The notes under the pieces are model-generated. The model had not been told where the DNA came from, did no database searches, and saw nothing but the letters and a program-made list of their open reading frames with translations. From assembly GCA_040771865.1 (NCBI GenBank), contig JAXGZF010000003.1, positions 124,001 through 188,000 of the forward strand: 64,000 nt of DNA, given 5' to 3'. Each line of letters begins with the position of its first letter. Position 1 is the stretch's first letter. Position numbers and translations under genes: made by a program. Shown piece after piece: positions 36,461-55,381 of this stretch. The stretch comes from Desulfobacterales bacterium (GTDB taxonomy: Bacteria; Desulfobacterota; Desulfobacteria; Desulfobacterales; UBA2245).

Positions 36461-36632
36461 ACCGATATGCCCGATTTGACATCAGATATTTCCCTTGATT
36501 TTCAGGATGTTAAATTTTTTGTATCGGCATGAGGATTTTGTTGATTTGACGAACGCCTGCGATTATATAAACATCCGGGTTCGAAACCAGAACCCGTTCA
36601 GTGAATTTTTTTTCTTCGAAAAGGATTTTCCC

Positions 36633-37718: not shown

Positions 37719-38126
37719 TTAAAGCTCTTTTTCCGTTGCAAGGCAGAGCCTTTCCGCTCCAGCCGCCTTGGCAAGATCCATGACCTTGACCGCATGGTTC
37801 AGGATCACGGCCCTGTCCGCCTTAATGACCACCAGTTTGTCCTTTTGCCCTCCGATGAGTTTTTTCAGCTCGGCAAACAGAATGTTCAAGGGGGTTTCCT
37901 GGTTCATCAGGTATGCCCTGCCTTCTCTGTCGACGTAAATCGTAATCTCCTGCTGGGTTTGAGGGGCGGCAGCCTTTGCCTGCGGCAGTTTGATCTTGAT
38001 CCCCTCGTCGACCATGAAATTGGTGGTCAGCAGAAAATAGATCAGCAGCATGAACACGATATCAATCAGCGAGGTCAGGGGCGCCTGAATCTGGTAAGGC
38101 TGTTTCTTTCGAGACAGTAATGCCAT
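37719..38126 (-). CDS. exbD: Biopolymer transport protein ExbD
   Basis: TSLIDIVFMLLIYF TM with the conserved Asp, LPQA and VIKAD. Confidence 0.93.
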   Translation of the reverse strand: MALLSRKKQPYQIQAPLTSLIDIVFMLLIYFLLTTNFMVDEGIKIKLPQAKAAAPQTQQEITIYVDREGRAYLMNQETPLNILFAELKKLIGGQKDKLVVIKADRAVILNHAVKVMDLAKAAGAERLCLATEKEL

Positions 38127-38205
38127 GTGTTATTCCTTTAAAGGAATGCAGGGTTGAAATTTCAGACCGCAAGACGATCATAAAATCCATCGAAGCCGCG
38201 GCGGT

Positions 38206-38841
38206 TCAGTGGATCCGGCCGTTATTCGAAGCCATCGAACCCCTGCCGAATGCCTTGATAAAAACAACCGCTCCGGCCTGCAACCGGGCCTCGTATTTAT
38301 CGATTCTGGAAATCAGGTAACTGTGAGCCACCATGGTGGGAAGGGCTACGGCAAGTCCCAGAGCCGTCGTGAGCATGGCCTCCCATATGCCGCCTGCCAG
38401 AACCGCCGCATTCACCTTTCCGCCCATCTGCTGAATGACCATGAATGCCTTGATCATGCCCAGAACAGTTCCCAGAAGGCCCAGAAGGGGGGCGATATTT
38501 CCCATCGTTGCAAGGGCCTGAACATAAGATGAAAGGCTTCGGACCTCTTCGTCCGTTGAATGGGCGATAACGGTTTCCAGAGTCTCCCGGTCCTGGTCCT
38601 TGACCTCGATTGCCTGCGCCAGCACCCTTCCCATGGGCGAGTTGCTTTGAATCAGCATTTCGTACGCTTCCTGATCCTGTCCCGACTCCATCATGGCAAC
38701 GGTTTTTTCAGCCAGTCCCGCGCCGCGGCTTCGAAGCCGGGTGAAACGGATCAGCCTTTCCACAAAAATGGCGAGAGAAAGAACGGAACATAATAAAATC
38801 GGGATGACTAGGACCCCGCCTTTTGATAAAAATTCGAGCAT
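38206..38841 (-). CDS. exbB: MotA/TolQ/ExbB proton channel protein
   Basis: APLLGLLGTVLGMI.AF and GIWEAMLTTALGLAVALP motifs. Confidence 0.93.
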   Translation of the reverse strand: MLEFLSKGGVLVIPILLCSVLSLAIFVERLIRFTRLRSRGAGLAEKTVAMMESGQDQEAYEMLIQSNSPMGRVLAQAIEVKDQDRETLETVIAHSTDEEVRSLSSYVQALATMGNIAPLLGLLGTVLGMIKAFMVIQQMGGKVNAAVLAGGIWEAMLTTALGLAVALPTMVAHSYLISRIDKYEARLQAGAVVFIKAFGRGSMASNNGRIH

Positions 38842-38897
38842 GTATTACCTCCGATAGTGTGTTTCAGTTTTTTTGTTCCGCCAGTATAAAATTCCGA

Positions 38898-39602
38898 TCA
38901 TGTCAGCTCGAACACGACGGCCAGAACCAGCCGGATGGGCTGATTCTGCGTGAAAATGGTCGTGGGCGGCGCCGGAAAAGGCGATGCTTTTTGAATGGCC
39001 TCAACCGCCGCATCATCGAGGATTTTGTGGCGGGAACTTATTCTGATTTCGATCGATGATACCGTTCCGTCGGGATCGATGGCAAATTCCACCGTGATGC
39101 GCCCCTCTATGTGGCGACTCTGGGCGGAAACCGGATATTTCTTGAATTGTTCGATTTTCAGCCGGACCATCTCGAAATAATCTTCCGCGGTTCCGAAGTC
39201 GCCGCTGGCAAGCGGCTCGGCCTGCCACCGTCCGATTTGAAGACCCGGAAGATTCGAGACCGGATTGTCGGCGGATATGGATTCAACGAGGCTGTCGGGC
39301 ACCGTTTTGTCCGCAGGATCGAGGCGGATCGGTTGAATGGCCGGAGGAGCGATGCGGTTCATTTTGATTTCTTCAACCACTTTCGGACGGATATGTGGAT
39401 TCGGGCGATGCCTCGGCCTTGGAATGTTGCGGACCTCGGGCGCCGATATGTTTCGAATGGCAATCTCGATGCAGCTGACGGCGTTTGAATGATACAGGCC
39501 CGCAATATGCAGAAAAATCACGAGGTGGAGGCAGACCGAGGGGATGATCAGGCCTCTGAGCAGCCAGTTGGGCTTGGTTTTATGATGGGATTCGATCTGC
39601 AT
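38898..39602 (-). CDS. tonB: Energy transducer TonB
   Basis: TM with SxxxH (SVCLH), Pro-rich linker, and YP..AQ...IEG.I.V.F.I.PDG C-terminal domain. Confidence 0.9.
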   Translation of the reverse strand: MQIESHHKTKPNWLLRGLIIPSVCLHLVIFLHIAGLYHSNAVSCIEIAIRNISAPEVRNIPRPRHRPNPHIRPKVVEEIKMNRIAPPAIQPIRLDPADKTVPDSLVESISADNPVSNLPGLQIGRWQAEPLASGDFGTAEDYFEMVRLKIEQFKKYPVSAQSRHIEGRITVEFAIDPDGTVSSIEIRISSRHKILDDAAVEAIQKASPFPAPPTTIFTQNQPIRLVLAVVFELT

Positions 39603-39670
39603 ACGCCGATTTGTCAGAATCTTTTTTCCTCTTCCGCCGCTGAATGCGAACCGGATTTTGCAGCCGAAGA

Positions 39671-41338
39671 TTACCGCTCCACATCGGGCGTACCGTCGAA
39701 ATCGAGATCTTTCGATTGCCTGACCAGCGTTTCGGATTCATCATATTCTTCCCAGAGATCCGGTCGGCCGTCCTTGTTCGTATCTTCTTCCAGTTTGCAG
39801 AGCCGGTTGTTCTCGTAATAAAACCAGATATCCGTTTTCCCGTCTTTATCGGAGTCTTTTTCGGCTTTATAGGCCTGCCCGCTGTTGTCATAATGCCAGG
39901 TCAGGTTCATGCGGCCGGTAAAGCCCTCGTCTTCCCTGCTTTGAATCAGACGTTCCCGGTCGTCGTAGCTCTCTTCCAGATCCATGATTCCGTCGCCGTT
40001 GGAGTCGATCTGTTTCACCACCAGGCGCTGATCGCGGTAAAAAAGCCGATGCTCGGGTTTTCCGTTGAGATTCGAGTCCAGCTCGATGATGGTCGACCAT
40101 TCCGGCTTCTGAAGCCACTGGGTGATCTCGAACCGGCCGTCATAATCCCTGTCTTCAAGGATTTTAAATGGTTTTCCATTTTCGTGGAAAACCTTGAGAT
40201 CGGTTTTCCCGTCATGGTTTTGATCCTTTTCCGTACGGATCATGGCTTCGTTTTCGTCATAAAACTGTTTTGCGTCGAACGCGCCGTCCAGATTCGTATC
40301 GGATTCCATGAGCCGGCGTTTTCCGCTGGTAAAATGTATCCTGACATCCGGGGTTCCGTTCCGGTTCGTATCCCGGGTCTGAAGATGGATCTCGGAATTC
40401 CGGTAAAGGGAGACGGACTCCCGGAATCCGTCCCCGTCTTCGTCCCATTCCACGCGAAGCGGTTTTCCGGATTCAAACGTCCGGATCCGGTCGATATTCC
40501 CGTCGTTACGGGTGTCTTCCCGTATCTCCTGAGGAAGACCGCCCCTGTCGAACCGGACAAAACAGTCCATCTTTCCGTCCAGATTCGTATCCTTTTCCAT
40601 GGCGGCGGACTTTCCGCTCGTAAATCGGGTGACGATGTCAAAGCGCCCGCTTCCGGTCGAATCCTTTTTCTGCTCGGTTATGACGCCCTTGCTGTAGATC
40701 CGGATCGTTTCCATGCGGCCGTCCTTGTCCAGATCGTGACGGCTTTCGGCGGGAAGTCCGCCGGCATCGTAGTGAATGATTTTTTCCGGCTTTCCGTTCC
40801 CGTCGTCATCGACCTCGCACTGCTCCGGCTTTCCGTTCCGGTAGGTCTGGCGAACATTGGGAATCCCGTTTCCATCCGAGTCGCGGGTGTAAAGCACGGT
40901 TTTCCCGTTTTCCAGGTGATAGACGGAATCCAGGCGTCCGTCGCCGGTGGAATCTTTTTCAATGCGCCGGGGCTGCTCGTTTGAATCAAACAGGATGATC
41001 CGGTCAATTTTTCCCGACTCCGCATAATGCTCGTGGCGGGAACGTTTCTGGTCTTTGAATTCGTCGCGGCTTTGGATCTGTCCGTTTGCACGGGTCTTTT
41101 CAATGCGGGTCAGAACGCCGCGTTCGTAATGCTGAAACTGGTCCATGATCCGGTCATGATCGCTGTCCAGCTCCAGTCGAATCAGGTTTCCCGAGGCGTC
41201 GACATGGGCGATCTGATCGATATGCCCGTCATGATTCAGGTCTTTTTCGATGCGCCGCTCCGCACTCACAGCTGCGGGAAGCATCGGAACAATAAGCAGG
41301 GCAAAGGCAATGCCCCAGAATGACAGACCGGACTTCAT
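39671..41338 (-). CDS. Exported repeat protein with ~22 tandem ~23-aa units carrying Dx[DN]x[DN]G loops
   Basis: ATG 41338 overlaps the DUF364 stop (ATGA). Signal peptide MKSGLSFWGIAFALLIVPMLPAAVSA. Repeats include DLNHDGHID, DTNLDGKMD, DQNHDGKTD, DSDKDGKTD and DLDFDGTPD. Confidence 0.85.
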   Translation of the reverse strand: MKSGLSFWGIAFALLIVPMLPAAVSAERRIEKDLNHDGHIDQIAHVDASGNLIRLELDSDHDRIMDQFQHYERGVLTRIEKTRANGQIQSRDEFKDQKRSRHEHYAESGKIDRIILFDSNEQPRRIEKDSTGDGRLDSVYHLENGKTVLYTRDSDGNGIPNVRQTYRNGKPEQCEVDDDGNGKPEKIIHYDAGGLPAESRHDLDKDGRMETIRIYSKGVITEQKKDSTGSGRFDIVTRFTSGKSAAMEKDTNLDGKMDCFVRFDRGGLPQEIREDTRNDGNIDRIRTFESGKPLRVEWDEDGDGFRESVSLYRNSEIHLQTRDTNRNGTPDVRIHFTSGKRRLMESDTNLDGAFDAKQFYDENEAMIRTEKDQNHDGKTDLKVFHENGKPFKILEDRDYDGRFEITQWLQKPEWSTIIELDSNLNGKPEHRLFYRDQRLVVKQIDSNGDGIMDLEESYDDRERLIQSREDEGFTGRMNLTWHYDNSGQAYKAEKDSDKDGKTDIWFYYENNRLCKLEEDTNKDGRPDLWEEYDESETLVRQSKDLDFDGTPDVER

Positions 41339-42084
41339 GGGAATAAAGTTTTTCCTCCGCCCCAGAGAACATGGGTTACGCCTTGAACCATTCGAAATGA
41401 ACAGCCCGAGGCGATGCATATTTGGGCCGTCGGTTTATCGCTGACGATGCTTCCCGCGAGTGCACAAAAACCCATGCGAAACAGGACCCGCGCCATCGGA
41501 GTGCTGGGGCCGACCATAATTTTTACGGCATTTGAAGATATGTGTGAAAGAATTTCCCCCAGCGTTCCGTTGGCCAGCGTGGTAGCGGTGATGGCCACGA
41601 GATCGGACTGAGGCAGCACGTCCGGCGACTGGCCGGCGTCGATGTCTCCGGGCCGGGGGTATTTTTCGAGCACCCGGAATTGTGCAAACTGGTCTCCCAT
41701 CTGCTCAACAAAGGGAAAATGTCCGATCACGGCGACATTTTTTCCTTTTCCGTATTCGAGAATCAGATCCGAAGCATTGCGGTCGATCAATTCGGCGGCG
41801 GGCGGATCAGGCAGCAGCGAATTGACGGCCGCCAGCCCCAGAGAGGCACGAACCGGATCCGGACTCAGCAGAAAACGGGCCATTTCCTTGGCTGATTCGG
41901 GCAGGCTTCTTTCAGGGAAATCATCGACCGAAAGCGGATGTTTTCCGATCGCCCATGTGGCGATTCCCATCTTGGCACTTTCAACGGCGACGATATGGCT
42001 GCCCATGATTAGGTTTGTAACCGGATGATCCGGAATCGGATCGAGTTCATCCAGTATGGCGTTCAAGATGTCCTGGTGTTTCAT
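41335..42084 (-). CDS. DUF364 / Rossmann-like putative heavy-metal chelation protein
   Basis: SLGLAAVNSL, KNVAVIGHFPF, VAITATTLANGT and MVGPSTP motifs. Confidence 0.85.
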   Translation of the reverse strand: MKHQDILNAILDELDPIPDHPVTNLIMGSHIVAVESAKMGIATWAIGKHPLSVDDFPERSLPESAKEMARFLLSPDPVRASLGLAAVNSLLPDPPAAELIDRNASDLILEYGKGKNVAVIGHFPFVEQMGDQFAQFRVLEKYPRPGDIDAGQSPDVLPQSDLVAITATTLANGTLGEILSHISSNAVKIMVGPSTPMARVLFRMGFCALAGSIVSDKPTAQICIASGCSFRMVQGVTHVLWGGGKTLFP

Positions 42085-42100
42085 GATGTTTCTCCAGAAT

Positions 42101-42667
42101 TCAAACACGCGGTATCTTCTGGCAGGTTTCCAGTATTAAATTCAAAAGCCTGTCCGATGCATTCGGTTCATCCGCCCGGACCTGGGGCGGTCGGTCGAGA
42201 TTCCAGATTCTGCAGACATCATTCACCAGTCCGGTTCGAACCACCCATATGTGGATCGCATCTTTCAATTGAAGCAGCGGCGTCAGAAAAGGCGCCCATC
42301 CCATTCCGGCGATTTCCAGGCGACCGACCTCATCTACGACAATAATTTCAGCCCCGGCGCAGGATTCAACGGACAGGGCGCGCCGGCCGGCTTTAATGCC
42401 GGATGAAAAAAACTCGAACGGAACTGTATTCCGGCCGTCGTTTATGACGCGACGGGCCAGCGGAACGCTTTTCCCGTATTTGAGATCGATCAGAATAAAT
42501 CCGCTTCGAATGTTGCTTTCCCAAAGCCCCCTTGCCAGAATGCCTGCGAGTTTCAGCTTTCGCTGTTTCAGAACCGGAATCAGCCCCTCGATAAAGGAGG
42601 ACTTTCCGCCTTGCGTATTTCCCGTGACAAGGATGATTCGGGGGCCTGAATCTTCGAAATGCATCAC
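42101..42667 (-). CDS. P-loop NTPase (NTPase_1 / DUF2478-like)
   Basis: ILVTGNTQGGKS Walker A and IIVVDEVGRLE..G.GW Walker B. Confidence 0.78.
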   Translation of the reverse strand: MMHFEDSGPRIILVTGNTQGGKSSFIEGLIPVLKQRKLKLAGILARGLWESNIRSGFILIDLKYGKSVPLARRVINDGRNTVPFEFFSSGIKAGRRALSVESCAGAEIIVVDEVGRLEIAGMGWAPFLTPLLQLKDAIHIWVVRTGLVNDVCRIWNLDRPPQVRADEPNASDRLLNLILETCQKIPRV

Positions 42668-43470
42668 GGCAGCGACTCCCGGTCCTGATCCTGCGGTACG
42701 ATGTCGGCCGGCAGGAATATCTGTACCGCGTCCGAGAGGCCGATCTTCTGCGTTTTGGAATCATACAGCTCGCTGACGTTGAAACTGGTCATGACCTCCT
42801 CGGTTTTTCCCTGAGCCACAATGCGTCCGTTTTTCAGCATGACCACCTGGTCGGAAAACAGCAGGGCCAGGTTGGGGTCGTGCATGGTCGCGATAATTCG
42901 GGAGCCCCTGTCCCTGCAAAGACGCTTCATCCGGTCCAGCATGCGGTACCGGTGATTGAAATCAAGATGATTGGTCGGTTCATCCATTAGCACGGTGGCA
43001 GAACTCTGAAGCAGGGCTCTGGCCAGAAGGGCGATCTGCCGTTCTCCTCCGGAGATCTGATTGTAATTCCGTTCGGCCAGAAAACCGGCGTTGAGGGTTT
43101 GCAGTGCGTCCAGGGCCATGCGGTAGTCTTCGGGACCCGGGCCGGCCATCATTTTCAGAAACGGGGTCCGTCCCATGACGACGAAATCGATGACGCTGAA
43201 CGGAAAAATATCCGTATGCTCCTGCGGCACCATGCTGACCTGCCGGGCGATCTGCGCCTGAGAGACGGTTCCCAGATCCATGCCGTCTAAGGAAATGCGC
43301 CCGCGGTACGGTTTCAGAATGCCGTTGAGGCAGTGCAGCAGGGTGGTTTTTCCGGAGCCGTTCCGCCCGAGAATGGCGCAGAAGGTTCCTGTTTTGACTT
43401 CAAAGCTGATGTCTTCCAGAACACGGCGGCCATTGTAGCTGAAAGACACGGATCGGCACAAGAGCGTCAT
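42664..43470 (-). CDS. FecE/FepC-type ABC transporter ATPase
   Basis: GRNGSGKT, ISGGERQ, MDEPTNHLD and MHDPNLA. True start at ATG 43470 overlaps the permease stop. Confidence 0.92.
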   Translation of the reverse strand: MTLLCRSVSFSYNGRRVLEDISFEVKTGTFCAILGRNGSGKTTLLHCLNGILKPYRGRISLDGMDLGTVSQAQIARQVSMVPQEHTDIFPFSVIDFVVMGRTPFLKMMAGPGPEDYRMALDALQTLNAGFLAERNYNQISGGERQIALLARALLQSSATVLMDEPTNHLDFNHRYRMLDRMKRLCRDRGSRIIATMHDPNLALLFSDQVVMLKNGRIVAQGKTEEVMTSFNVSELYDSKTQKIGLSDAVQIFLPADIVPQDQDRESLP

Positions 43471-44525
43471 ATCCATCCACTCCTGCGGTTTTTGTACAGC
43501 AGATAGACAAACAGCGGCGCTCCGGCCAGGGCTGTAATGATGCTGACCGGAAGTTCCGCGGACGTGATCGAACGGGCGAGCATGTCTGCCGCCAGAAGAA
43601 AAATGCCGCCGATCAGCATGGTGATCGGAATCATTCTCGAATGATTCGGCCCGACCACGGTTCGGGCGATATGCGGAATCACCAGTCCGATCCAGCATAC
43701 CTGTCCGCAGGTGGAAACGGTGACCGCCACCATCAGCGAACTGATGGAGATGAAAATGATTCGATACAGGGTCGGATTCATGCCCAGAGACCGGGCCTGA
43801 AGGTCTCCCAGAGAGAGCACGTTCAGCCGGTACCGAAGCGCATGAACCAGAATCAGCCCGATGCCGATGGTCGGCATGATAAGGTACAGGTCGTTCCATT
43901 CCACCCGGCTCAGGCTTCCCATGATCCAGAACACGATGGCCGGCAGTGCGCTGTAAGGATCCGCCAGGTATTTGAGAATCATGAGCAGTGCGTTGAACAC
44001 CGATGTGGCCACTAGGCCGGCCAGGATCAGCACGAGAATGGGTCTGACGGCGACCATTCTGGCGATGCCGACGGCCAGGAATACGGCCGCCAGTCCGAAA
44101 ACAAATGAGAGTATTCGGACCAGCAGAAAGGAGTTTCCGGGAAGAATCAGGCCCAGGGCCGCGCCGAATGTGCAGCCCGCCGATACTCCCAGAATGTCCG
44201 GAGACACCAGCGGGTTTCGAAACAGGCCCTGATAGACCGCGCCGGAAACCGACAGTCCCATGCCGACAAATATCGCCAGCAGTCCTCTCGGAAAACGGAT
44301 CAGGGTAAACACCTGGGCCTTGGAAAGAAGTTCTTCGGGAACCGGGCTCCCGAACAGGGACGAGCCGACAATCGTCATCGCTTCGCTCAATCGGATATCC
44401 AGGCGTCCGACCATTAGTGAAAGCAGAAACAGTCCCGCCAGCAGAAAGACCAGCAGAACGGTCAAATACCGCGTGTTGTGAAAAAAGCCCGCAGCGGGTT
44501 TTGAGTCGGAGACCGGTTGTGTCAT
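43467..44525 (-). CDS. FecCD/BtuC-family ABC permease
   Basis: IRFPR, QGLFRNPLVSPDILGVSAG, WIMGSL and WIGLVIPH motifs. Confidence 0.94.
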   Translation of the reverse strand: MTQPVSDSKPAAGFFHNTRYLTVLLVFLLAGLFLLSLMVGRLDIRLSEAMTIVGSSLFGSPVPEELLSKAQVFTLIRFPRGLLAIFVGMGLSVSGAVYQGLFRNPLVSPDILGVSAGCTFGAALGLILPGNSFLLVRILSFVFGLAAVFLAVGIARMVAVRPILVLILAGLVATSVFNALLMILKYLADPYSALPAIVFWIMGSLSRVEWNDLYLIMPTIGIGLILVHALRYRLNVLSLGDLQARSLGMNPTLYRIIFISISSLMVAVTVSTCGQVCWIGLVIPHIARTVVGPNHSRMIPITMLIGGIFLLAADMLARSITSAELPVSIITALAGAPLFVYLLYKNRRSGWI

Positions 44526-44538
44526 ATGCCTTCAATAT

Positions 44539-44569
44539 CAGGAGCCCCTTCAGCTGACGGGGCTGCCTG
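44539..44569. other. Intergenic stem-loop between binding-protein and permease genes
   Basis: CAGGAGCCCC...GGGGCTGCCTG imperfect inverted repeat. Confidence 0.5.
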
Positions 44570-44584
44570 TAAAAGTTCAAAAAA

Positions 44585-45694
44585 TTACGGGCCCAGGACG
44601 TCGTCCAGCCGGCCCCCCATTTCCGTAAAGGATCTGGAAAACAGAATTTCATGAAAACCATCGATTTCTTTGATTAAATCAATATCATGAAACCGGTCCG
44701 GATACAGTCTCTTTCCGGCCCAGAGCACGCCCAGCACGGACAGGGGGGATGGAAAGTCCCACGGCGCAAGACTGGATGGAATGCAGAAAAATTGGCCGAA
44801 TTTGACGGCCTCGACTTCGGCCAGTTCGGGTTTGCCGAGATATTTTCCGGCGGACGATCGAATCTCCCGGCAGGCAAACACCGCATCCGGGTTCCATTGA
44901 ACGAGCTGCTCCGGGGAAATGGACTTGAAAAAACCGGTCAGGTCATGGGCCGCGTTGATTCCGCCGGCTTGGGAGATCATTTCATCCTGAAGCATATCGC
45001 CGGGGGCGGTCGTGAAAAACCCCTCCGGCCCAGCGTAATACACCGTTTTGCGCTCTTGGGCTTTCAGACCTGCGGTCCGGGTATGGACCATGTCCATGAC
45101 ATGATCGATCGCCTGAATCACCGTATCCGCCCGTTCAGGGCAGCCCGCCGCGCGGGCGATGATGCGAAGCGTTTCCTCGATGCTGGCCAGGCTTTCCGGC
45201 AGAATCACGATGGCCGGAATTCCGGACCGGACCAGCCGGTCTGCCGTCAGAATTCCGTCTTTCTGGGCGTAAAGGATCACCAGATCGGGCTTGAGAGATA
45301 TTACGGTCTCCATGTTCAGGCCCGTGGAGCGGTTGCCGATTTTCGGAAGCAAGCTCATGGCCGGATATACCGCCGTGTTGATCCGGACCCGGGGCGAGAA
45401 ACTGTCCACCGCGACCAGGCGGTCGGCCAGCCCCAGAGACAAAATGCTGAGCGTGGCCGGCTTGAAGGTCGTGATGATGTGCTCGGCCCTGCCGGAAAGG
45501 GCGACGTTCCGGCCGGCCATATCCACGATCGTGTATTGGGTTTGGGCGAGTGCGCTTACGGTAATGCAGCAGGCGATCAAGCCGGAACTCAGAATGCCGA
45601 GCAGCCATGTCCTTAAGTGGCATCCGGCCGATGACTGGATGGTTTTTTGAATCATCATGTTCGAATCAAACCCTTGTTTTTTTAATAGGTCCAT
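44585..45694 (-). CDS. Periplasmic binding protein, helical-backbone (BtuF/FhuD/TroA class III); start likely a downstream Met
   Basis: IVDMAGRNV, NMETVISLKPDLV, EQLVQWNPD and WDFPSP motifs. Confidence 0.9.
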   Translation of the reverse strand: MDLLKKQGFDSNMMIQKTIQSSAGCHLRTWLLGILSSGLIACCITVSALAQTQYTIVDMAGRNVALSGRAEHIITTFKPATLSILSLGLADRLVAVDSFSPRVRINTAVYPAMSLLPKIGNRSTGLNMETVISLKPDLVILYAQKDGILTADRLVRSGIPAIVILPESLASIEETLRIIARAAGCPERADTVIQAIDHVMDMVHTRTAGLKAQERKTVYYAGPEGFFTTAPGDMLQDEMISQAGGINAAHDLTGFFKSISPEQLVQWNPDAVFACREIRSSAGKYLGKPELAEVEAVKFGQFFCIPSSLAPWDFPSPLSVLGVLWAGKRLYPDRFHDIDLIKEIDGFHEILFSRSFTEMGGRLDDVLGP

Positions 45695-45735
45695 TTTCTC
45701 TTCGGAAAACGTCTGAACCGGAATTTCCGCCTGAG

Positions 45736-45775
45736 CGGAACCGGCTTTCCGCGGTGTTATAGAAAACCGGTTCCG
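45736..45775. other. Stem-loop downstream of the TonB-dependent receptor gene (mRNA stabiliser or partial terminator)
   Basis: CGGAACCGGCTTTC / GAAAACCGGTTCCG, 13 of 14 bp complementary, no U-tail. Confidence 0.55.
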
Positions 45776-45790
45776 TCTGGAGGAATGACA

Positions 45791-47773
45791 TCAGAATGTG
45801 GTGCGCACCAGCGCAAAAAAGGTGCTGCCTTCTCGAGGATATCCGTTTTTATACATGTAATCCTCGTCAAAAAGGTTCTTCACCCCGGCCTCAATGGTCA
45901 TGAATTTTGCGGGCTTCACCATGATCTTGGCGTCCACGGTCCAGAACCCGTCGATGGAATCAAATTCGCCGTCGCTGTTTTCCTGATACCGTTCGGAGTT
46001 CCACTGGACTCTGGCAAAGGCCGAGAGCCAGTCGTTGAATTTGTAATGATCGCTTATGTAAAGCTGGTGTTCGGAAACCTCTTCCAGTTTGTCGCTGATC
46101 CGGTCATCCGACCGGTTTTCGGCGTCCAGGTAGGTGTAATGGCATTCAATCTCGTTCTTCGGAATAATGCCAGTCTTCAGAATCAGCTCGAATCCCTGGT
46201 ACCGGGCCTCTCCGATATTCTGATACTGGTCGGTACCGTCCGAAAGTTCTTTTTGCACGATCTTGTCTTCGACATCCGAGAGGAACAGATTCGCCTGAAA
46301 GAGAGAATCCGCCGGCAGGGGTTTTTCGATGCCGACCTCGTAGTTGGTCGCTTTTTCGTTGGCCAGATCGGGATTGGGCGTATTGCCGCCTATTTCACTC
46401 GAATACAGCTCATGCATGGTCGGGAAACGGGTTTTCTGGCCCACGGATGCATGCAGCACGGTATCCTCGAACACGTTCAGGTACAACCCGGCCTGGGGAT
46501 TGTAGGCGTCCTCATCGTCCCGTACAGGTTCGCCGTTGGCGTATTCCGGACACTGAAGGTCGTAGCTGATGCCCAGCACCAGAGAAAGCCGGTCGTTGAA
46601 CTTGATGTCGTCTTCCAGACCAAGGGAGTACATTTCGGTCTCGTATTTTTCCCAATCGTCGCCACGATCGCCCTGAGCCTCATGAACGTCCTTCTTGTAA
46701 TGAAAAGCGGCGCTGATGGTCTGATTGGCAAGATGCCGGGACCGCAGCGTCAAAGATCCGCCGTCGCTGTGATCGTCATAGATGCTGTGGAAAGCATATC
46801 GTTTTGTCTGAGAGCTGTAGGTGCCGTCATCATAAGAATCCAGCACATTGTAGTATTCGTCGTGAAAGGCCCTGATTTTGGCGGAAAATTGTTCCGTGAA
46901 GTCGATGTTGCCGATCAGGTAATAGGTATCTTTGTCCCAGTCGGTAAACCGCCAGTACCGGGTTTTGTCGGCCAGCGACGCCGACGGAGGCAGCCCCTTT
47001 TCCATGGATACGGTGTTGACGCCGATGGCGTATTCCTGATTGTCGGTGGGCGTAAAGCCGATTTTTAACGCTCCGCTTTTCTGCTCCACATCCGAATTGT
47101 CCCGAAGGCCGCCGTCTTCAATGGCGTTCGCATCAAAGTCGTCTGAAAGCCGGAATCCGTCGGAATTCAGATACCCGCCGCTGAGCATGAAATAAAATTT
47201 ATCCAGCCTGGATCCCAGGTTGATATTCGTATGATACGCTTTTTCTTCCGCGTATCCGAATTCCATCTCGCCCTCGATGGCTTTTTGCGGTTTCATGGTA
47301 ACGATGTTGATCACGCCGCCCATGGTGTTGGGACCGTAGAGCGCCGAGCTGATGCCCTTGGTCAGCGTGATTTTCGACAGGCTGGAGGTGGGCAGGTTGC
47401 CGGTGTCCACATAGCCATCATAAGGTATGTAAATGGGAATGCCGTCCAGAAACGTCGGCACATAGCGTTCGTTGAACCCCCGGACGTTGATGTTCTGCTC
47501 ATTCTTGGAACCGACCGACACGGTCACGCCCGGCAGGGATTCGAGCGCGTCTGAAATGTTCTCGGCGTTGATCAGATCGATGCGATCCTGGCTGACGGTT
47601 TCTACCGTCGATACCTGGGTGATGGTTTCTCCCTTTCCCTCCACGACGACCTCGCCGATATCAAACGTTCCGGCTGAATCCGAGACCGTTGCCGTCTCCT
47701 GGGACTGAGCGGTTGCTCCCCAGAAGCATAATAGCGCCAGGGAGAAAATCCATAACAATGCCTTGCGTCTCAT
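45791..47773 (-). CDS. TonB-dependent outer-membrane receptor
   Basis: Signal peptide, TonB box (EVVVEG), plug motifs (LESLPGV, NVRGF, GGVINIVT), NPDL.NE, GVKNLFD and C-terminal Phe. Confidence 0.95.
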   Translation of the reverse strand: MRRKALLWIFSLALLCFWGATAQSQETATVSDSAGTFDIGEVVVEGKGETITQVSTVETVSQDRIDLINAENISDALESLPGVTVSVGSKNEQNINVRGFNERYVPTFLDGIPIYIPYDGYVDTGNLPTSSLSKITLTKGISSALYGPNTMGGVINIVTMKPQKAIEGEMEFGYAEEKAYHTNINLGSRLDKFYFMLSGGYLNSDGFRLSDDFDANAIEDGGLRDNSDVEQKSGALKIGFTPTDNQEYAIGVNTVSMEKGLPPSASLADKTRYWRFTDWDKDTYYLIGNIDFTEQFSAKIRAFHDEYYNVLDSYDDGTYSSQTKRYAFHSIYDDHSDGGSLTLRSRHLANQTISAAFHYKKDVHEAQGDRGDDWEKYETEMYSLGLEDDIKFNDRLSLVLGISYDLQCPEYANGEPVRDDEDAYNPQAGLYLNVFEDTVLHASVGQKTRFPTMHELYSSEIGGNTPNPDLANEKATNYEVGIEKPLPADSLFQANLFLSDVEDKIVQKELSDGTDQYQNIGEARYQGFELILKTGIIPKNEIECHYTYLDAENRSDDRISDKLEEVSEHQLYISDHYKFNDWLSAFARVQWNSERYQENSDGEFDSIDGFWTVDAKIMVKPAKFMTIEAGVKNLFDEDYMYKNGYPREGSTFFALVRTTF

Positions 47774-48615
47774 TTCGTGTTTCCTCCTGATGATGTTGAT
47801 GCGTTTTGTTGATAACCGGGCTGTTTCCAGGTCATGATCAGGTAAACGGCGATGCCGACAATCATGAGTGGAAACAGCGTGAACACAACATTTTTGGCCG
47901 GATTTCTGGATATAAAAAGAATCGTCCCGGCGGTCGACGATTCCGGATCGGTTTTTCCGACTGAAGGGGGCGGAGTGAAATTTTTCAGCGTAAACTGGAT
48001 GCCGTCGAGAACCAGCGGTTTGAGAAAAGACAGGCGGCCTGATTTCAGAAACAGGTCATTTTTGTACAGGGAGACCTGAACACAATTGGATTCAAAGCTG
48101 AATTCGTCCGATGTCATGGCTTTGATGGGTTTTGTCAGAACGGAGAAGTCGTTTACGAAATGGATCGCATTGGCTGTTACCCGGTATCCGTTTTGCAGCT
48201 CGAAGGACTCTCCCTGCCGGAGCCGGACATTTGCATACCGGAATCCGACCATCAGGCTGGCAAAATGGCATAGAATCACCAGTCCGAATACGATATGAAT
48301 GGCCAGCATGAGCATGGCCGGTTGGTTCATGCGTCTGGAGGTCATCTTGAGAAACTTGTTCCAGGAGCAGAAAATCAGATTGATGCCAAGGGCCGCCGCC
48401 ACAGCGCACAACCCAAAGAACCAGAAGCGGATCAGCGGCGATTTACCATGGGAAACTGAGAGCCAGTCCGGCATCAGATAGTTGTTCATCTGCTGAAATA
48501 TTTCGTAATAACCGGTAGTTGTGAGAACAACCGCCCAGGTGAACCAGACACTCAGAATGATCAGAAGCCAGAGGGAGAAATGAAGGGAGGAGAGAAAATC
48601 AATCAGTTTTTTCAC
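47770..48615 (-). CDS. ResB/CcsB-like membrane protein (short, divergent)
   Basis: FLSSL.FS..LL start, WF...NLI.CS, a TM His (AIHIVFGLVILCHF), a periplasmic domain and C-terminal 'SRNP' plus TM. Confidence 0.6.
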   Translation of the reverse strand: MKKLIDFLSSLHFSLWLLIILSVWFTWAVVLTTTGYYEIFQQMNNYLMPDWLSVSHGKSPLIRFWFFGLCAVAAALGINLIFCSWNKFLKMTSRRMNQPAMLMLAIHIVFGLVILCHFASLMVGFRYANVRLRQGESFELQNGYRVTANAIHFVNDFSVLTKPIKAMTSDEFSFESNCVQVSLYKNDLFLKSGRLSFLKPLVLDGIQFTLKNFTPPPSVGKTDPESSTAGTILFISRNPAKNVVFTLFPLMIVGIAVYLIMTWKQPGYQQNASTSSGGNTK

Positions 48616-49352
48616 AGCAGGCTCCGAATCATCGTCATGGTCAGAAGGAAAACCCCGCTCAATCCGCCGAGCAGGGAACGAATTCGGGCTGCATTTTCAT
48701 TTCTGCCGGGAATGTGAAATGCGATCATGAGATACAGCAGCACCAGAGTGGATTGAAAAAAAACATTGCTCCAGTGCCAGAAGTCCCCCCAGCCCTGCTG
48801 GCACCAGATCATTCCGGAATATTCGGAGATGAGAAAGCAAATGGCGCCAAGGATCAGGTAGTTTCTGCCCCGATGATGCCATGCCGGGTCTGAAAAGTGT
48901 TTTCGTCCGGTTTTCCGGTGCTGAAAGAAGTGACAGGATGAAAACAGCATGAGGGCCAGGGAGATTCTTCGAAATGCGTGAAAGAGAATGACCCAGAGGT
49001 GGCGATATTGGTACTCGTTTTGACCATTGCTTTGGGGACAGAACAGGCAAAAAGACAAAAGGATTAAAATAAAAACATATCCCCAGCGTCTGAGTTCCGT
49101 GTCTGAATCGTCATGGGAGGTACCAAATGAAATCAGGATGCCGAGAATGAAAGTTACCAGCAGCATGGATTCGAAATCCGTGAAAACGGGAATGCGGCTG
49201 CCGGCGTAGGTCATCGCTGCCAGGGCCGATGCGGAACATGCGCAGCCCGCCCACAAGGAATATTTTTCCAGCGAAAACCGCCTTGTGTGAAGGCAAAACA
49301 GAGCCGATACGAAACAGATCAGGGTCAAACAGAAAAAAGATACCGGCTGCAT
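48612..49352 (-). CDS. CcsA/ResC-like (WWD-domain, heme-handling superfamily) membrane protein, divergent
   Basis: RIP.....ES, LFH, GMIWCQQGWGDFWHW (WWD-like) and AFH. GAGGA RBS before ATG 49352. Confidence 0.72.
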   Translation of the reverse strand: MQPVSFFCLTLICFVSALFCLHTRRFSLEKYSLWAGCACSASALAAMTYAGSRIPVFTDFESMLLVTFILGILISFGTSHDDSDTELRRWGYVFILILLSFCLFCPQSNGQNEYQYRHLWVILFHAFRRISLALMLFSSCHFFQHRKTGRKHFSDPAWHHRGRNYLILGAICFLISEYSGMIWCQQGWGDFWHWSNVFFQSTLVLLYLMIAFHIPGRNENAARIRSLLGGLSGVFLLTMTMIRSLL

Positions 49353-49494
49353 GTTCGTGTCCTCAAACAGTCTCATCCGAACGATCGGTTTATTCCGGAA
49401 ACCAGCGCCATGGATGCCCTTATGTTCCCAATGAAAGGGCATCGTACCCGGTAGACGGAAAGCGTCCTGACATGAAGTGTTATTAAAAGAAATT

Positions 49495-49523
49495 TTTAAA
49501 GCGTTTATTACTGTTTTTGTCAA
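49495..49523 (-). promoter_or_regulatory. Putative sigma-70 promoter of the ccsA-like/TBDR operon
   Basis: TTGACA (49523-49518) in a very AT-rich intergenic stretch, with a weak -10 (TTTAAA or TAAAAA). Confidence 0.5.
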
Positions 49524-49626
49524 TATATATTTAAATAAATCTAATAAAAACGAATTCTAACTTAAAAGAACAAAAAAGGGGCTTCTTTTTTGAATGAACG
49601 CTGTTTGTTTGGATTTTCGTCTTTTA

Positions 49627-50460
49627 TCAGGCGCTGGATACCTGCACGTTATAACGTTCGTTTGCAGCACAATGCCCGTACCGCCCTTTGACCCCTTCCG
49701 GAACGCAGATATGGCCGCCTCCATCCAGATCCATGACCGTGATGCGGGTGTTGTACAGGTTGTACAGATTGAGTCGATTGACCTTCTGCGAGGCGTCTCC
49801 GTCCGCAATCACTCTTCCGTCTTTCAGCATGACGACGCGGTCTGAAAACCAGAGTGCGTGATCGGGGAAATGAGTGGTTTTGATGAAGGTGTACCCATGA
49901 TGCGCAAGGTCCGTAATCCGGGACAGGAGCCGAATCTGGTTGCCGTAATCCAGGCCGTTGACTGGTTCATCCATGATGAAAATGCCGGCGCCCTGGGCCA
50001 GTGCGCGGGCGATCAGCGTGAGCTGTCGCTCGCCGCCGCTGATCTCAGTGTAGGGCCGGTCCCTGAGGTGAGCGATAGAGAGCCGTTCCAGGGCCTCAAC
50101 GGCCGCCTTTTCGTCGTCGTCGCTAAAACGGAAGAAAAACGGCTTGTGCGGCATTCTCCCCATCAGCACGACGTCCAGGACCCGGTAGCCGAATGAAAGA
50201 CGGTGAAATTGAGGAACGTACGCGATGCGTTTGGACAGCTGTTTCGGGGGAATGTTGCAGACCGGCCGGCCTTCAAACAGCACCCGGCCTTCCTGGGGAC
50301 GAAATAATCCCAGCAGCAGTTTAAGCAGAGTCGTCTTGCCGCTGCCGTTCGGCCCCAGAAGCGAGACGATTTCACCTTGGTGAAAATCGACCGAAATGTC
50401 GTTGAGAACCGGCTGGCGGGAATAGCCGTAGGTAACGTGATCGACTGAAATCAGGCTCAT
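49627..50460 (-). CDS. FecE/FepC-type ABC transporter ATPase
   Basis: GPNGSGKT, ISGGERQ, MDEPVNGLDYGNQ and THFPDHA. Confidence 0.93.
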   Translation of the reverse strand: MSLISVDHVTYGYSRQPVLNDISVDFHQGEIVSLLGPNGSGKTTLLKLLLGLFRPQEGRVLFEGRPVCNIPPKQLSKRIAYVPQFHRLSFGYRVLDVVLMGRMPHKPFFFRFSDDDEKAAVEALERLSIAHLRDRPYTEISGGERQLTLIARALAQGAGIFIMDEPVNGLDYGNQIRLLSRITDLAHHGYTFIKTTHFPDHALWFSDRVVMLKDGRVIADGDASQKVNRLNLYNLYNTRITVMDLDGGGHICVPEGVKGRYGHCAANERYNVQVSSA

Positions 50461-52504: not shown

Positions 52505-52547
52505 TAAGTCTTTCTGTCTTCCGGTCATGCCCCCAATTCCGGCATAT

Positions 52548-55309: not shown

Positions 55310-55381
55310 GACAAGTTATATGCTGTTGAATCCAAACACGCTCAAACGGTTCTGGTTTTCAGGAGGCTTCAAACCGGGCCA

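Follow-up and report, generated by a model that had tools for sequence, protein, structure and literature searches.

What could a TonB-dependent receptor, an ABC importer and a pair of proteins resembling CcsA and ResB be doing together in one operon? This question is raised by a locus in the window, a 64,000-nucleotide stretch of DNA from a Desulfobacterales bacterium. The operon consists of 12 genes on the minus strand, here called g01 to g12, which run from 49352 to 37719, are all intact open reading frames (ORFs), and have a GC content of 53.7%. It is preceded on the same strand by an AT-rich intergenic region, the presumed promoter region (49353..49626; 36.1% GC, and 20.7% over 49480-49600), with a TTGACA at about 49523. 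The preferred start of g01 is the ATG at 49352, the longest ORF beginning at 49523. Neighboring genes overlap by 4 bp at five junctions, with the letters GTGA (g01/g02 and g06/g07) or ATGA (g02/g03; g05/g06, with the g06 start at 43470; and g08/g09, with the g09 start at 41338), and by 8 bp at g07/g08; the remaining gaps measure 56 to 129 bp. None of the operon's intergenic gaps contains a terminator-like site on the minus strand, which, as judged from the sequence, fits a single transcript. In the g01 leader, no fitting riboswitch family of Rfam was found at the gathering score or at E ≤10. A sequence-only reading of this DNA had pointed out the 12 co-oriented genes, the many 4-bp overlaps and the AT-rich promoter region, and the ORFs, junctions and GC values agree with it.

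Pfam calls were judged against curated cut-offs. The domains above them were Plug and TonB_dep_Rec_b-barrel in the TonB-dependent receptor (TBDR) g03 (45791..47773); Peripla_BP_2 in the periplasmic binding protein (PBP) g04 (44585..45694, with possible starts at 45694 or 45658/45655); PF01032 in the FecCD-type permease g05 (43467..44525; 269.6 bits); ABC_tran in the ATPase g06 (42664..43470), whose start overlaps the g05 stop; PF03266 in g07 (42101..42667; 49.5 bits), an NTPase_1 (THEP1-like) P-loop protein; DUF4213 and DUF364 in g08 (41335..42108); and TonB_C, MotA_ExbB and ExbD in g10 (TonB, 38898..39602), g11 (ExbB, 38206..38841) and g12 (ExbD, 37719..38126), respectively. The product of g09 (39671..41338) is a secreted acidic repeat protein with DxDxDG-type motifs, with 16 strict occurrences of [DN]x[DNST]x[DN]G, most of them at intervals of 24-25 residues, and an acidic-residue content of 20%; its N terminus is signal-peptide-like if read from M28, and its Atlas neighbors were DUF6802/VCBS/FG-GAP-like clusters of Thermodesulfobacteriota. 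The Pfam matches and the repeat count showed that the earlier calls for these genes were correct. No substrate-specific NCBIfam model reached its cut-off for g03, whose closest PDB relative was BtuB (E 4e-18). For g04, the best PDB matches were 4hn9 (1e-33), 4ovk and 2etv, all uncharacterized "iron complex" binding proteins, followed in fourth place by HI_1472 (3psa/3psh; 3.9e-18, 69 bits, C-terminal half only).

The gene g01 (48612..49352) encodes a mini-CcsA of 246 aa, a membrane protein of eight helices, and g02 (47770..48615) a mini-ResB/CcsB of 281 aa, with four transmembrane (TM) helices and a β-domain of ~110 aa. No Pfam or NCBIfam match was found for g02, and g01 scored 26 bits against PF01578, under the cut-off of 29.9 bits. 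Despite this, the labels "ccsA-like" and "resB-like" given earlier were confirmed by fold. The AF2 model of g01 (pLDDT 85.5) matched the CcsA part of CcsBA (7s9y residues 626-892) with a VIA Z of 20.3 over 241 residues at 3.3 Å, and CcmF (6zmq) with a VIA Z of 19.7; the next VIA rows had a Z of ≤12.7 and covered residues 1-108 only. g02 matched 7s9y with a Foldseek E of 2.4e-5, its CcsB part (residues 3-343) with a VIA Z of 11.1 over 224 residues, and CcmF with a Z of 7.3. By hhalign, WCQxGWGDFWHWS and AFHIPG of g01 aligned to the WWD motif and TM-His2, respectively, of the genome's own CcsA. Invariant residues were W183, G189, W194 and H213 in g01 and, in 20 sequences, H107, H117, C70, C83 and W85 in g02. 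The predicted g01+g02 complex scored 0.87, versus 0.19 for the best control, with a contact agreement of at least 87% and a partner pLDDT of at least 81; among solved complexes, 116 of 157 attain the mark used for this score, as do 2 of 215 mismatched pairs, and the score may stem from resemblance to the CcsBA fusion of known structure. According to these models, g01 and g02 are a genuine pair predicted to form a small CcsBA-like membrane complex. In comparison with the related locus L002, dN/dS was 0.28 for g01, 0.19 for g02 and 0.14 for the TBDR gene.

The genome also encodes canonical ResB and CcsA, and the pair differs from such synthases in several respects. In CcsBA/ResB-ResC, the system II synthase (H. 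hepaticus CcsBA, PDB 7S9Y/7S9Z), g02 corresponds to the CcsB half and g01 to the CcsA half; the pair retains a WWD-like motif, TM-His2 and a PxxNxFES-like motif, TM-His1 of g02 was matched by eye to the genome's own ResB, and binding between the two halves is predicted as well. Unlike CcsBA, however, the pair totals 527 aa (890-901 residues in the solved chains), is encoded in the order A then B, lacks P-His2, and has a P-His1 that varies across the wider family. The WWD motif of g01 has an invariant Cys and no DPKE tail. In g02, a second His (H117) is invariant, and the periplasmic domain is limited to ~110 aa. No Pfam cut-off is cleared by either protein, and the genes lie beside receptors and Mo/W transporters instead of cytochromes. 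The fold is common to CcmF, the system I heme lyase with a stable heme b (6ZMQ), but CcmF is one chain of 589 residues. CcmF works with CcmE and CcmH, and no gene for either was found in the window's operon. In the CcmF scaffold, heme b lies between two TM histidines and has a proposed redox role. To our knowledge, all characterized members of the CcsA/CcmC/CcmF fold handle heme, which favors a tetrapyrrole reading of the pair. On balance, we lean toward the pair being a heme-bearing redox or handling module and not a cytochrome c synthase.

We examined the conservation of the operon in two sets of loci from Thermodesulfobacteriota (numbered with L), which overlap and come from related, hence nonindependent, genomes. 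The g02 gene came after g01 in all 35 assessable loci, and a TBDR gene followed the pair in 26 of 28. The order g01-g02-TBDR-PBP-FecCD-ABC-NTPase-DUF364 was also found in another family (L084 and L131) at 33-64% identity, and the same genes were reordered as PBP-FecCD-ABC-NTPase-g01-g02 in L134 and L137. A g07 homolog adjoined g01 or a DUF364 gene in L084, L131, L134, L137, L090 and L098. Most relatives have, instead of the ABC/NTPase/DUF364 block, an APC permease and a Sec-exported fusion protein made up of Oxidored_molyb and TP_methylase-like domains. This fusion, with a CxxCH motif invariant in 15/15 sequences, was encoded after the pair and the TBDR at 19 of the 22 loci that could be assessed; it had no match in the genome under study. 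Of the 22 first-set loci whose contig continues for 3.9 kb or more past g01, 2 had the ABC block; NTPase and DUF364 genes were confined, in the first set, to the closest relative, and the repeat protein occurred at 5/36 loci; g09 occurred together with ExbB/ExbD/TonB in L002, L021, L022, L025, L031, L128 and L129. The expectation that the accessory genes accompany the transporter elsewhere was borne out by the TBDR position and the eight-gene block. As for the single machine proposed earlier, the co-occurrence of its parts held up, whereas the scarcity of the ABC block and the repeat protein revealed modularity. We consider it very probable that the system is real and conserved and that its parts act jointly. 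It also appears to be undescribed, as claimed, since our literature search found no account of such a system, nor of a mini-CcsBA linked to Mo/W supply.

The earlier reading had placed the system at 37719..49352. The ATG at 49352 suits g01, but the system extends further. Upstream on the minus strand is a sister operon (49627..53393) encoding a class-I methyltransferase, a Peripla_BP_2 protein, a FecCD permease and an ABC ATPase, as identified by Pfam. It is syntenic in L002 at 80-92% identity, a 45%-identical methyltransferase is found within the L096 cluster TBDR-DUF364-FmdE-MT-APC-DUF364-fusion, and the sister operon is probably part of the same system. Also on the minus strand is a gene for MoeA, the molybdopterin molybdenum/tungsten transferase (59244..60515; MoeA_N, MoCF_biosynth and MoeA_C). 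Just past the window are another MoeA gene, an XdhC gene and two additional DUF364 genes, which brings the island to two genes for MoeA, one for XdhC and three for DUF364 proteins.

No recognized Mo/W gene is among the 12 operon genes, and the link to these metals comes from neighbors and relatives. In L141 the order is NifB-g01-g02-ModA-ModB-ABC, with NCBIfam scores above the cut-offs (NifB, 402>343.65; ModA, 291>253; ModB, 359>262), and in L138 it is ModA-ModB-ABC-DUF364-x-g01-g02-TP_methylase-like. A ModE-like gene stands ahead of g01-g02-ModB-ABC in L139; the pair lies between two molybdoenzyme genes in L144, which also has a TupA-like gene; WtpA (376>355) and a PF12727 regulator are directly upstream in L019; a PF12727 regulator is immediately past the ABC genes in L026; and MobA-like, NTPase and DUF364 genes diverge from g01-g02 in L090. 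A paralogous TBDR gene in the genome under study adjoins tupABC, a PF12727 regulator and DUF364-like-modABC. Among 401 sampled genomes of the phylum, Mo/W genes adjoined the pair at 7 of 22 places, and the other 15 had no Mo/W gene within the fetched stretch. DUF364 (g08) homologs were present in 10/14 g01-positive genomes versus 78/301 overall (first 301 sampled genomes). The accessible text of two reports describes DUF364 within the modABC operon of M. maripaludis, where it is cofit with nifH (bioRxiv 10.1101/2024.03.05.583561), and Mo, W, V and Fe transporters as neighbors of DUF364 (PMC2954201). Other DUF364 neighborhoods contained Ni, Fe-S or unrelated genes. The metallo-tetrapyrrole cargo put forward earlier did not fare well: no cobalamin riboswitch was found in the window or leader, no heme or B12 receptor model reached its cut-off, and the cross-genome context points to molybdenum/tungsten instead. 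The cargo is more likely than not tied to Mo/W, as far as gene context can indicate, and its form is most likely molybdenum and/or tungsten that is bulky or chelated. Since tupABC and modABC are already encoded in the genome, a further Mo/W route is not obviously needed.

Known uptake systems resemble parts of the operon. The usual cargo of Peripla_BP_2/FecCD systems is siderophores, heme or corrinoids, but MolBC-A of Haemophilus influenzae (HI1470/71 with HI_1472), also of this type, imports molybdate and tungstate, both of which are bound by HI_1472. We know of no TBDR, heme-handling pair, NTPase or DUF364 protein acting with MolBC-A. With respect to ModABC/TupABC/WtpABC, the relatives' pair lies inside modABC operons or adjoins WtpA; the window's importer is, in contrast, of the FecCD and not the ModB type, with a TBDR in front. 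FoxA-FoxB and XusABC combine a TBDR with an inner-membrane heme reductase by which the metal is released in the periplasm. As there, the receptor is encoded with a membrane protein, which in those systems bears heme; those reductases, however, are PepSY_TM proteins serving iron, whereas the pair has the CcsA/ResB fold. BtuB-BtuFCD shares its receptor, binding protein, permease and ATPase families with the operon, which differs in lacking a riboswitch and in scoring far below the cut-offs of the Btu equivalog models. DUF364 together with modABC, as in the accessible text on M. maripaludis (bioRxiv 10.1101/2024.03.05.583561), is found in the genome under study too.

Several other explanations were weighed. 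Uptake or salvage of heme or another tetrapyrrole, with heme imported by the TBDR, bound at the WWD site and passed by the pair inward or to periplasmic proteins while the ABC system imports the rest, is unlikely. The heme-handling fold with its retained WWD motif, TM-His1 and TM-His2 would suit it, as would the relatives' periplasmic TP_methylase-like domain (a tetrapyrrole-binding fold) with its invariant CxxCH, the heme importers among Peripla_BP_2/FecCD systems, the heme-binding proteins among the weaker g04 PDB matches and, in the accessible text of PMC10434189, an iron-starvation locus of B. thetaiotaomicron with two annotated "CcsA" genes induced 60-320 fold. However, the NCBIfam heme-receptor subfamily scored 162 bits (cut-off 316.85), the genome has its own tetrapyrrole synthesis (ALAD is present), P-His2 is absent and P-His1 variable, an APC permease is an unlikely carrier of heme, and the presence of the pair in modABC operons and beside WtpA, MobA, XdhC and molybdoenzymes is left unexplained. 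We hold equally doubtful the uptake of another metal chelate, such as a ferric siderophore or a nicotianamine- or opine-type Ni/Co/Zn metallophore, with the mini-CcsBA as a membrane reductase that frees the metal. PepSY_TM/FoxB-type reductases beside some TBDRs do free metal, and the TBDR, FecCD ABC system and TonB are all present. Nicotianamine-synthase-like genes and a methyltransferase gene occur upstream of the triad in L036, ECF/CbiQ modules lie near paralogous TBDRs, and some DUF364 genes have LarC or Opp-like genes in their vicinity. The sole characterized DUF364 enzyme, according to the accessible text of PMC12930334, cyclizes an S-adenosylmethionine derivative to an azetidine amino acid, a chemistry resembling that of nicotianamine-type chelators. 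Against this, the recurrent neighbors above cut-off are Mo/W genes, and nicotianamine synthase genes were found at 1 locus among 50 scanned of 89 upstream ORFs, selected at 20/36 first-set loci. Were such a metallophore to carry Mo/W, this explanation would coincide with the best one.

A dedicated system II cytochrome c synthase for the relatives' CxxCH fusion, which in the window would be a leftover or serve a cytochrome encoded elsewhere, is highly improbable. The invariant motif, the Sec signal and the position of the fusion after the pair and TBDR fit it, and in Wolinella, genes for special cytochromes are accompanied by those for dedicated CcsBA isoenzymes. CxxCH, however, is the standard motif and the genome has canonical ResB and CcsA; the pair is under purifying selection with no CxxCH protein in the operon (window and L002), the fusion was found neither by tblastn nor by Pfam in L084/L131, L134, L137 and modABC-type loci and is unmatched in the genome itself, and the pair lacks P-His2. 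Just as improbable is salvage of a corrinoid (cobinamide or cobamide), with g03 and g04-g06 as the BtuB/BtuFCD equivalent. De novo corrin synthesis is apparently missing (no CbiD and only two TP_methylase genes, at 98.3% completeness), though CobS is present; BtuB, BtuF and BtuC models were among the matches, and CobT-CobS-CobD-CbiB genes lie just upstream in L008, L009, L015, L017 and L018. Yet these loci form one clade, with an opposite-strand gene between the Cob genes and the triad; every Btu equivalog score was far under its cut-off; and no cobalamin riboswitch was found in the window (gathering score) or in the leader (E ≤10), compared with six strong ones (110-123 bits) elsewhere in the genome. 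Finally, there is little likelihood that the pair with the TBDR, the ABC-NTPase-DUF364 genes and the repeat protein with the TonB system are independent cassettes brought together by chance. They are found separately in many genomes, and some are set apart by gaps of 56-129 bp, but the eight-gene order recurs in another family, the same genes occur in other orders (the NTPase gene directly before g01 in L134 and L137), and 4-bp overlaps join genes both within and across cassettes, with no intergenic terminator-like site.

The best reading, to which we hold tentatively, is a modular TonB-dependent system for Mo/W acquisition with a membrane module of the heme-handling type. In such a system, g03, driven by its own TonB-ExbB-ExbD (g10-g12), would move the putative cargo into the periplasm, where the secreted g09 would be an accessory. 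Heme would be held between His107 of g02 (TM-His1) and His213 of g01 (TM-His2), so that the pair could be a trans-membrane redox or tetrapyrrole-handling module, as proposed for heme b of CcmF, and the conserved WWD-like loop would act on the imported species or a periplasmic partner to free the metal. The product would be picked up by g04 and imported via g05/g06. Once in the cytoplasm, the cargo would be received or processed by g07, the NTPase, and g08, the DUF364 protein, for cofactor synthesis, which MoeA, XdhC and the further DUF364 proteins of the island may join, as their context suggests. On this reading, the operon represents a single form of a TonB-dependent, modular acquisition system of Thermodesulfobacteriota, not one fixed machine.

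The twelve genes, g01 to g12, are all intact open reading frames running in the same direction on the minus strand, from 49352 down to 37719. The first two encode small proteins that we call mini-CcsA (g01) and mini-ResB/CcsB (g02), together "the pair." The third encodes a TonB-dependent receptor (TBDR), with both a Plug domain (PF07715, 80.6 bits) and a 22-strand barrel domain (PF00593, 141.8 bits) over the Pfam cut-offs. The products of g04, g05, and g06 matched Peripla_BP_2 (a periplasmic binding protein, PBP), FecCD, and ABC_tran, each over the curated cut-off, and make up a complete type II (BtuCD/FecCD-type) ABC importer. NTPase_1 was matched over its curated cut-off by g07, and DUF364 (PF04016, 114.3 bits) and DUF4213 (43.1 bits) were both matched over theirs by g08. 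The g09 product is a secreted acidic protein with 16 strict [DN]x[DNST]x[DN]G motifs, spaced mostly 24 to 25 residues apart. A TonB-ExbB-ExbD energizer is encoded by the adjacent g10, g11, and g12 (TonB_C, MotA_ExbB, and ExbD, over the curated Pfam cut-offs). At five junctions, start and stop codons overlap by 4 bp; a sixth overlap measures 8 bp, and the remaining junctions are gaps of 56 to 129 bp. No terminator-like site was found on the coding strand in any intergenic gap of the operon. The GC content was 36% in the 274 bp upstream of g01, versus 54% across the operon. The 12 co-oriented genes noticed in the sequence-only reading were confirmed. No Rfam family reached its gathering score across the whole window, and the leader gave only chance-level rows at an E value of ≤10. 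In two biogas-fermenter runs (X19 and X20), which are labeled RNA-Seq and look like DNA, a relative about 91% identical had the same order from exbD to the TBDR gene. An outer-membrane phospholipase A1 gene (PF02253, 343 bits; 36495 to 37664, plus strand) is convergent with the end of the operon.

The g01 protein (246 amino acids [aa]) scored 26 bits against PF01578, below the cut-off of 29.9 (25.6 bits in the genome search), and g02 (281 aa) had no Pfam or NCBIfam match. A search of the bacterium's own genome with PF05140 found only a canonical ResB on contig C7 and not g02. Sequence searches of the PDB with profiles of both proteins gave nothing relevant, so fold searches were needed. The AlphaFold model of g01 (pLDDT of 85.5) aligned along its full length with the CcsA half of Helicobacter hepaticus CcsBA (7s9y residues 626 to 892) with a Z score of 20.3 over 241 residues at 3.3 Å, and with CcmF (6zmq) with a Z score of 19.7 over 235 residues. 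Unrelated rows reached a Z score of at most 12.7 and were confined to the first 108 residues. The model thus places g01 in the 8-helix CcsA-core fold. In a profile comparison with the CcsA of the same genome, WCQQGWGDFWHWS of g01 was aligned with the WWD motif WANSAWGSYWSWD. The motif WGDFWxW[S/N/G] stands opposite WGSYWSWD of the CcsA, so that the final D of the WWD consensus (WGxxWxWD) and the PKE tail are absent. W183, G189, and W194 are invariant, distant members included. H213 (AFHIPG), aligned with TM-His2 (LLHAR) of the CcsA, is likewise invariant in two alignments (20/20 and 14/14 sequences). The same profile comparison aligned LFHAFR with P-His1 and PVFTDFES with PLSNLYES. Of 20 close members, 17 have P-His1; in the distant members aligned, F mostly takes its place (7 of the 8 between P0085 and P0199). 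No counterpart of P-His2 was found in this comparison, as g01 ends ahead of the GLHSY position.

The model of g02 matched the CcsB half of CcsBA with a Foldseek E value of 2.4e-5 and aligned with 7s9y residues 3 to 343 with a Z score of 11.1 over 224 residues at 4.8 Å. The next unrelated rows had Z scores of at most 8.8 and covered the beta-domain alone. By these comparisons, g02 is predicted to fold like the CcsB portion of CcsBA. Twenty homologues share H107 and H117, which lie on a single transmembrane helix, as well as C70, C83, and W85. The helix bearing H107, IHIVFGLVILCHFASLMVGF, resembles by eye the TM-His1 helix VHLSVVLLLCGGLIGSIFGF of the genome's ResB. In a complex prediction, g01 with g02 scored 0.87, versus 0.19 for the best of three controls, with contact agreement of at least 87% and a partner pLDDT of at least 81; the mark used is reached by 116 of 157 solved pairs and 2 of 215 mismatched pairs. 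The two proteins are thus predicted to bind each other. Because the solved CcsBA fusion resembles the pair, this result speaks of likeness more than proof. Judged from the models, the pair is a shrunken CcsBA. A canonical ResB plus CcsA and a second CcsA are also encoded in the genome, so the pair is an extra, diverged system. The dN/dS ratios against a close relative, locus L002, were 0.28 for g01 and 0.19 for g02, which argues that both genes are maintained and not decaying.

The conservation of the cluster was examined in two partly overlapping sets of genomes. Among 5.8 billion clusters, g01 had 54 relatives of about 246 aa. A first set of 36 loci came from a pattern scan with one genome per species; their hosts were without exception Desulfobacterales, Desulfatiglandales, or unclassified "delta" MAGs. 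By tblastn, g02 follows g01 in 35 of them; the contig of the 36th stops 44 bp past g01. Of the 28 loci whose contigs extend 1.8 kb or more past g01, 26 have a TBDR gene next (tblastn); L031 and L035 lack it there and continue directly with the cluster's following gene. That gene, in 19 of the 22 loci with 3.9 kb or more, encodes a fusion protein of about 590 aa with a Sec signal peptide, two Oxidored_molyb-like domains, one TP_methylase-like domain, and a CxxCH motif invariant in 15 of 15 sequences. An APC-family permease gene follows the fusion gene in 10 loci. No CxxCH was found in the proteins of the window's operon, and no match to the fusion was found in its genome. The PBP-FecCD-ABC block occurs in this set only in L002 (78 to 93% identical) and L026, the NTPase and DUF364 genes only in L002, and the repeat protein with ExbB, ExbD, and TonB in L002, L021, L022, L025, and L031. 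The fusions retain a GxGxGD motif beside the CxxCH. The TP_methylase-like proteins with a Sec signal (L138, 208 to 1098, minus strand; L144, 10410 to 11297, minus strand; and the A3 fusions) are presumably periplasmic, where SAM is not expected.

A g01 profile searched among 1.84 billion cluster representatives retrieved 200 at an E value of ≤0.001 and 119 at ≤1e-10, nearly all of 240 to 260 aa. When 401 genomes of the phylum were sampled, 21 carried the family (16 of 255 genera). It is small and well delimited, so experiments on one member would be informative for all. The second set comprised 22 places in 20 other genomes, some of them also in the first set; a TBDR gene was in the cluster at 14 places and a FecCD-type ABC importer at 5. 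L084 and L131, from one genus of a family other than the window's, have its exact order from g01 to g08 (g01-g02-TBDR-PBP-FecCD-ABC-NTPase-DUF364) at 33 to 64% identity. L130 carries the fusion and the ABC block together, and the order in L134 and L137 is PBP-FecCD-ABC-NTPase-g01-g02. A DUF364 homologue was present in 10 of 14 g01-positive genomes versus 78 of 301 overall, a comparison of the first 301 genomes sampled in which kin are not independent. The accessory genes thus travel with the transporter, in several gene orders, contrary to the lack of co-occurrence that the sequence-only reading named as refuting its proposal. The arrangements vary, and the system is modular and not one fixed machine. 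In L136 and L140 (family f53), the pair lies after subtilase-like and NapC/NirT-like cytochrome genes, with no receptor or transporter in view, and in L143 and L145, the pair and a TBDR gene are followed by genes for a GAF-domain protein and GAPDH.

Genes for molybdenum or tungsten (Mo/W) transport and use were found around the pair in several relatives. L141 has the order NifB-g01-g02-ModA-ModB-ABC, with NCBIfam scores over the cut-offs (NifB, 402 versus 343.65; ModA, 291 versus 253; ModB, 359 versus 262). In L138, ModA (88 versus 62.5), ModB, ABC, DUF364, and one further gene precede the pair, which is followed by the gene for a TP_methylase-like protein of 296 aa that carries a signal peptide. 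L139 has a ModE-like gene (below the cut-off) and then g01-g02-ModB-ABC, and L142 is similar by tblastn. L144 has the pair together with a TupA-like gene and the gene for a secreted TP_methylase-like protein, all flanked by genes for a molybdopterin oxidoreductase and an aldehyde-oxidoreductase-type molybdoenzyme. In L135, DUF364-XdhC-MobA genes lie downstream of the pair at a distance of about 9 kb, and in L090, MobA-like-NTPase-DUF364 genes are divergent from g01-g02-TBDR-fusion. L096 reads TBDR-DUF364-x-FmdE-methyltransferase-APC-DUF364-fusion, and a TupA-like gene is in the vicinity. L019 carries WtpA (376 versus 355), its permease, and a PF12727-plus-helix-turn-helix regulator immediately upstream of the pair; this regulator is also found in L004, L012, and L013, of the same clade, and in L026, a PF12727 regulator gene comes immediately after the ABC genes. 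ModABC-, TupABC-, or WtpABC-type genes are in the operon of the pair only in relatives (L138, L139, L141, L142, and L144); the bacterium studied here carries some elsewhere. Its operon has no ModA/TupA/WtpA-type binding protein or ModB-type permease, the importer being of the FecCD type.

The window has its own island with such genes, including MoeA (59244 to 60515, minus strand). Just beyond the window's end (L053, C3:186001-203000), genes were found for a TBDR, Peripla_BP_2, DUF364, and an O-methyltransferase, followed by three open reading frames without assignment, a second DUF364, XdhC, a second MoeA, and a 1,271-aa protein with a weak FG-GAP match. Elsewhere in the genome (L149, C4:305001-325000), a TBDR 31% identical to g03 precedes an ECF-type module (double ATPase plus CbiQ), and directly downstream are two TupA-like genes, a permease, a TOBE-domain ATPase, a PF12727 regulator, a DUF364-like gene, and modABC. 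L025 and L034 have a TBDR-plus-ECF module of this type upstream of the pair. The genes immediately upstream of the window's operon (49627 to 53393, minus strand) encode a class I SAM methyltransferase, 45% identical to the methyltransferase of the L096 cluster, and a second FecCD-type ABC importer (PBP, permease, and ATPase); this arrangement is syntenic in L002. Between that operon and MoeA (54029 to 57041, minus strand) are genes for a 426-aa protein with two [4Fe-4S] motifs, a SufBD-like protein, and a SufC-like ABC ATPase. The open reading frames at 57550 to 58350 and 58390 to 58923 had no family match. An IS transposase gene (DUF4372 and DDE_Tnp_1; 60751 to 61920, plus strand) lies between MoeA and a second TBDR gene (62114 to 63973).

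What the system carries was weighed from these neighborhoods and from the protein families. A link of the cargo to Mo/W seems to us reasonably probable. The fourth-ranked PDB relative of g04 (E value of 3.9e-18) is HI_1472, the molybdate/tungstate-binding MolA of a FecCD-type importer. In Methanococcus maripaludis, a DUF364 gene lies within a modABC operon that is cofit with nifH (bioRxiv 10.1101/2024.03.05.583561), and a DUF364 structure paper names transporters of Mo, W, V, and Fe among the neighbors (PMC2954201). On the other side, no recognized Mo/W gene lies within the 12-gene operon, and none was present in the stretch fetched at 15 of the 22 sampled places. Only some of 13 further DUF364 neighborhoods were Mo related (MobA-like in L098, MoaA in L100, MOSC in L102, and Nitro_FeMo-Co domains in L087, L092, and L095), and the others had LarC, Opp-like, Fe-S, or unrelated genes. 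The sole characterized DUF364 member converts a SAM derivative to a methyl-azetidine amino acid (PMC12930334). L036 has nicotianamine-synthase-like genes.

Tetrapyrroles are suggested by how the pair folds and also by the TP_methylase-like domain. No substrate-specific NCBIfam model for the TBDR, PBP, permease, or ATPase exceeded its cut-off. Heme uptake was set aside, since the heme-receptor model TIGR01785 scored under its cut-off (162.3 versus 316.85 bits); ALAD is encoded in the genome, so heme auxotrophy is not the driver. Uptake of corrinoids through a BtuB/BtuFCD-like system would suit a genome that probably salvages them, as indicated by the absence of CbiD, the presence of only two TP_methylase genes, and the presence of CobS, and CobT-CobS-CobD-CbiB genes lie upstream in one clade only. 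It was set aside because no cobalamin riboswitch (RF00174) was found in the window, the genome having six elsewhere (110 to 123 bits; contigs C5, C6, C7, and C8), and because the equivalog models were under their cut-offs (TonB-B12, 104.7 versus 599.7; BtuF, 52.7 versus 234). Chance juxtaposition of the genes and a dedicated cytochrome c synthase were also considered and set aside. As an explanation of the whole, we tentatively favor a modular TonB-dependent Mo/W acquisition system with a heme-handling-type pair, at slightly less than an even chance.

In such a Mo/W acquisition system, the receptor g03 with its own TonB system would admit a bulky Mo/W species. The pair could hold heme between H107 of g02 and H213 of g01 and act on the periplasmic side of the membrane as a module for redox work or for handling a tetrapyrrole, as has been proposed for the heme b of CcmF. 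The binding protein g04 and the FecCD/ABC importer would take the product inward, and the NTPase and DUF364 proteins may channel it towards MoeA. In loci with other genes in place of the ABC block, the Sec-exported CxxCH/Oxidored_molyb/TP_methylase-like protein with the APC permease, or ModABC, might take over the work in the periplasm and the import. Besides the parts of the system, we observed at the pair itself likeness to CcsBA, retention of TM-His2 and a WWD-like loop, a possible counterpart of TM-His1, and co-conservation with receptors and Mo/W transport genes. To our knowledge, Sec-exported proteins receive neither molybdenum cofactor nor SAM by the usual way. Exported partners would thus be without this supply, which makes a membrane partner that delivers a cofactor or electrons attractive. 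A bolder and rather unlikely reading is that the pair is the first branch of the heme-handling superfamily outside cytochrome c maturation and that, with Sec-exported partners, it forms a periplasmic redox or cofactor-loading machine that frees Mo/W in sulfidic habitats. The partners would bring the TP_methylase-like domain, the Oxidored_molyb-like domains, and the CxxCH heme; a tetrapyrrole exported or held for the partner would strip or convert thio-, chelated, or mineral-bound Mo/W, and the resulting oxyanion would enter through ModABC- or FecCD-type systems. On this reading, sulfate reducers and their kin would acquire Mo/W with the help of TonB-dependent receptors.

In the openly accessible literature searched, neither the pair nor secreted TP_methylase-like proteins are described, and no TonB-dependent Mo/W system is reported for these bacteria, in agreement with the sequence-only reading of an undescribed system. 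A Bacteroides thetaiotaomicron study describes an iron-starvation locus with two genes annotated as CcsA (PMC10434189). TonB/ABC uptake is of a known kind, and what is new here is the accessory module and probably also the class of cargo for such receptors. Carbon and nitrogen cycling under anaerobic conditions depends centrally on enzymes of Mo and W, such as formate dehydrogenases, aldehyde oxidoreductases, and nitrogenase, and the availability of the two metals is poor in sulfide-rich settings. The bacterial Mo/W uptake that we know of is essentially by the ModABC, TupABC, and WtpABC oxyanion pumps. If the proposal is true, trace-metal acquisition in sulfate reducers and syntrophs would have a new layer, namely a TonB-dependent route that includes a dedicated redox or cofactor module in the membrane. 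The CcsA/CcmF/ResB fold would gain a role outside cytochrome c biogenesis, and the orphan families DUF364, NTPase_1, the periplasmic TP_methylase-like proteins, and the DUF6802-type repeat protein would gain a testable context.
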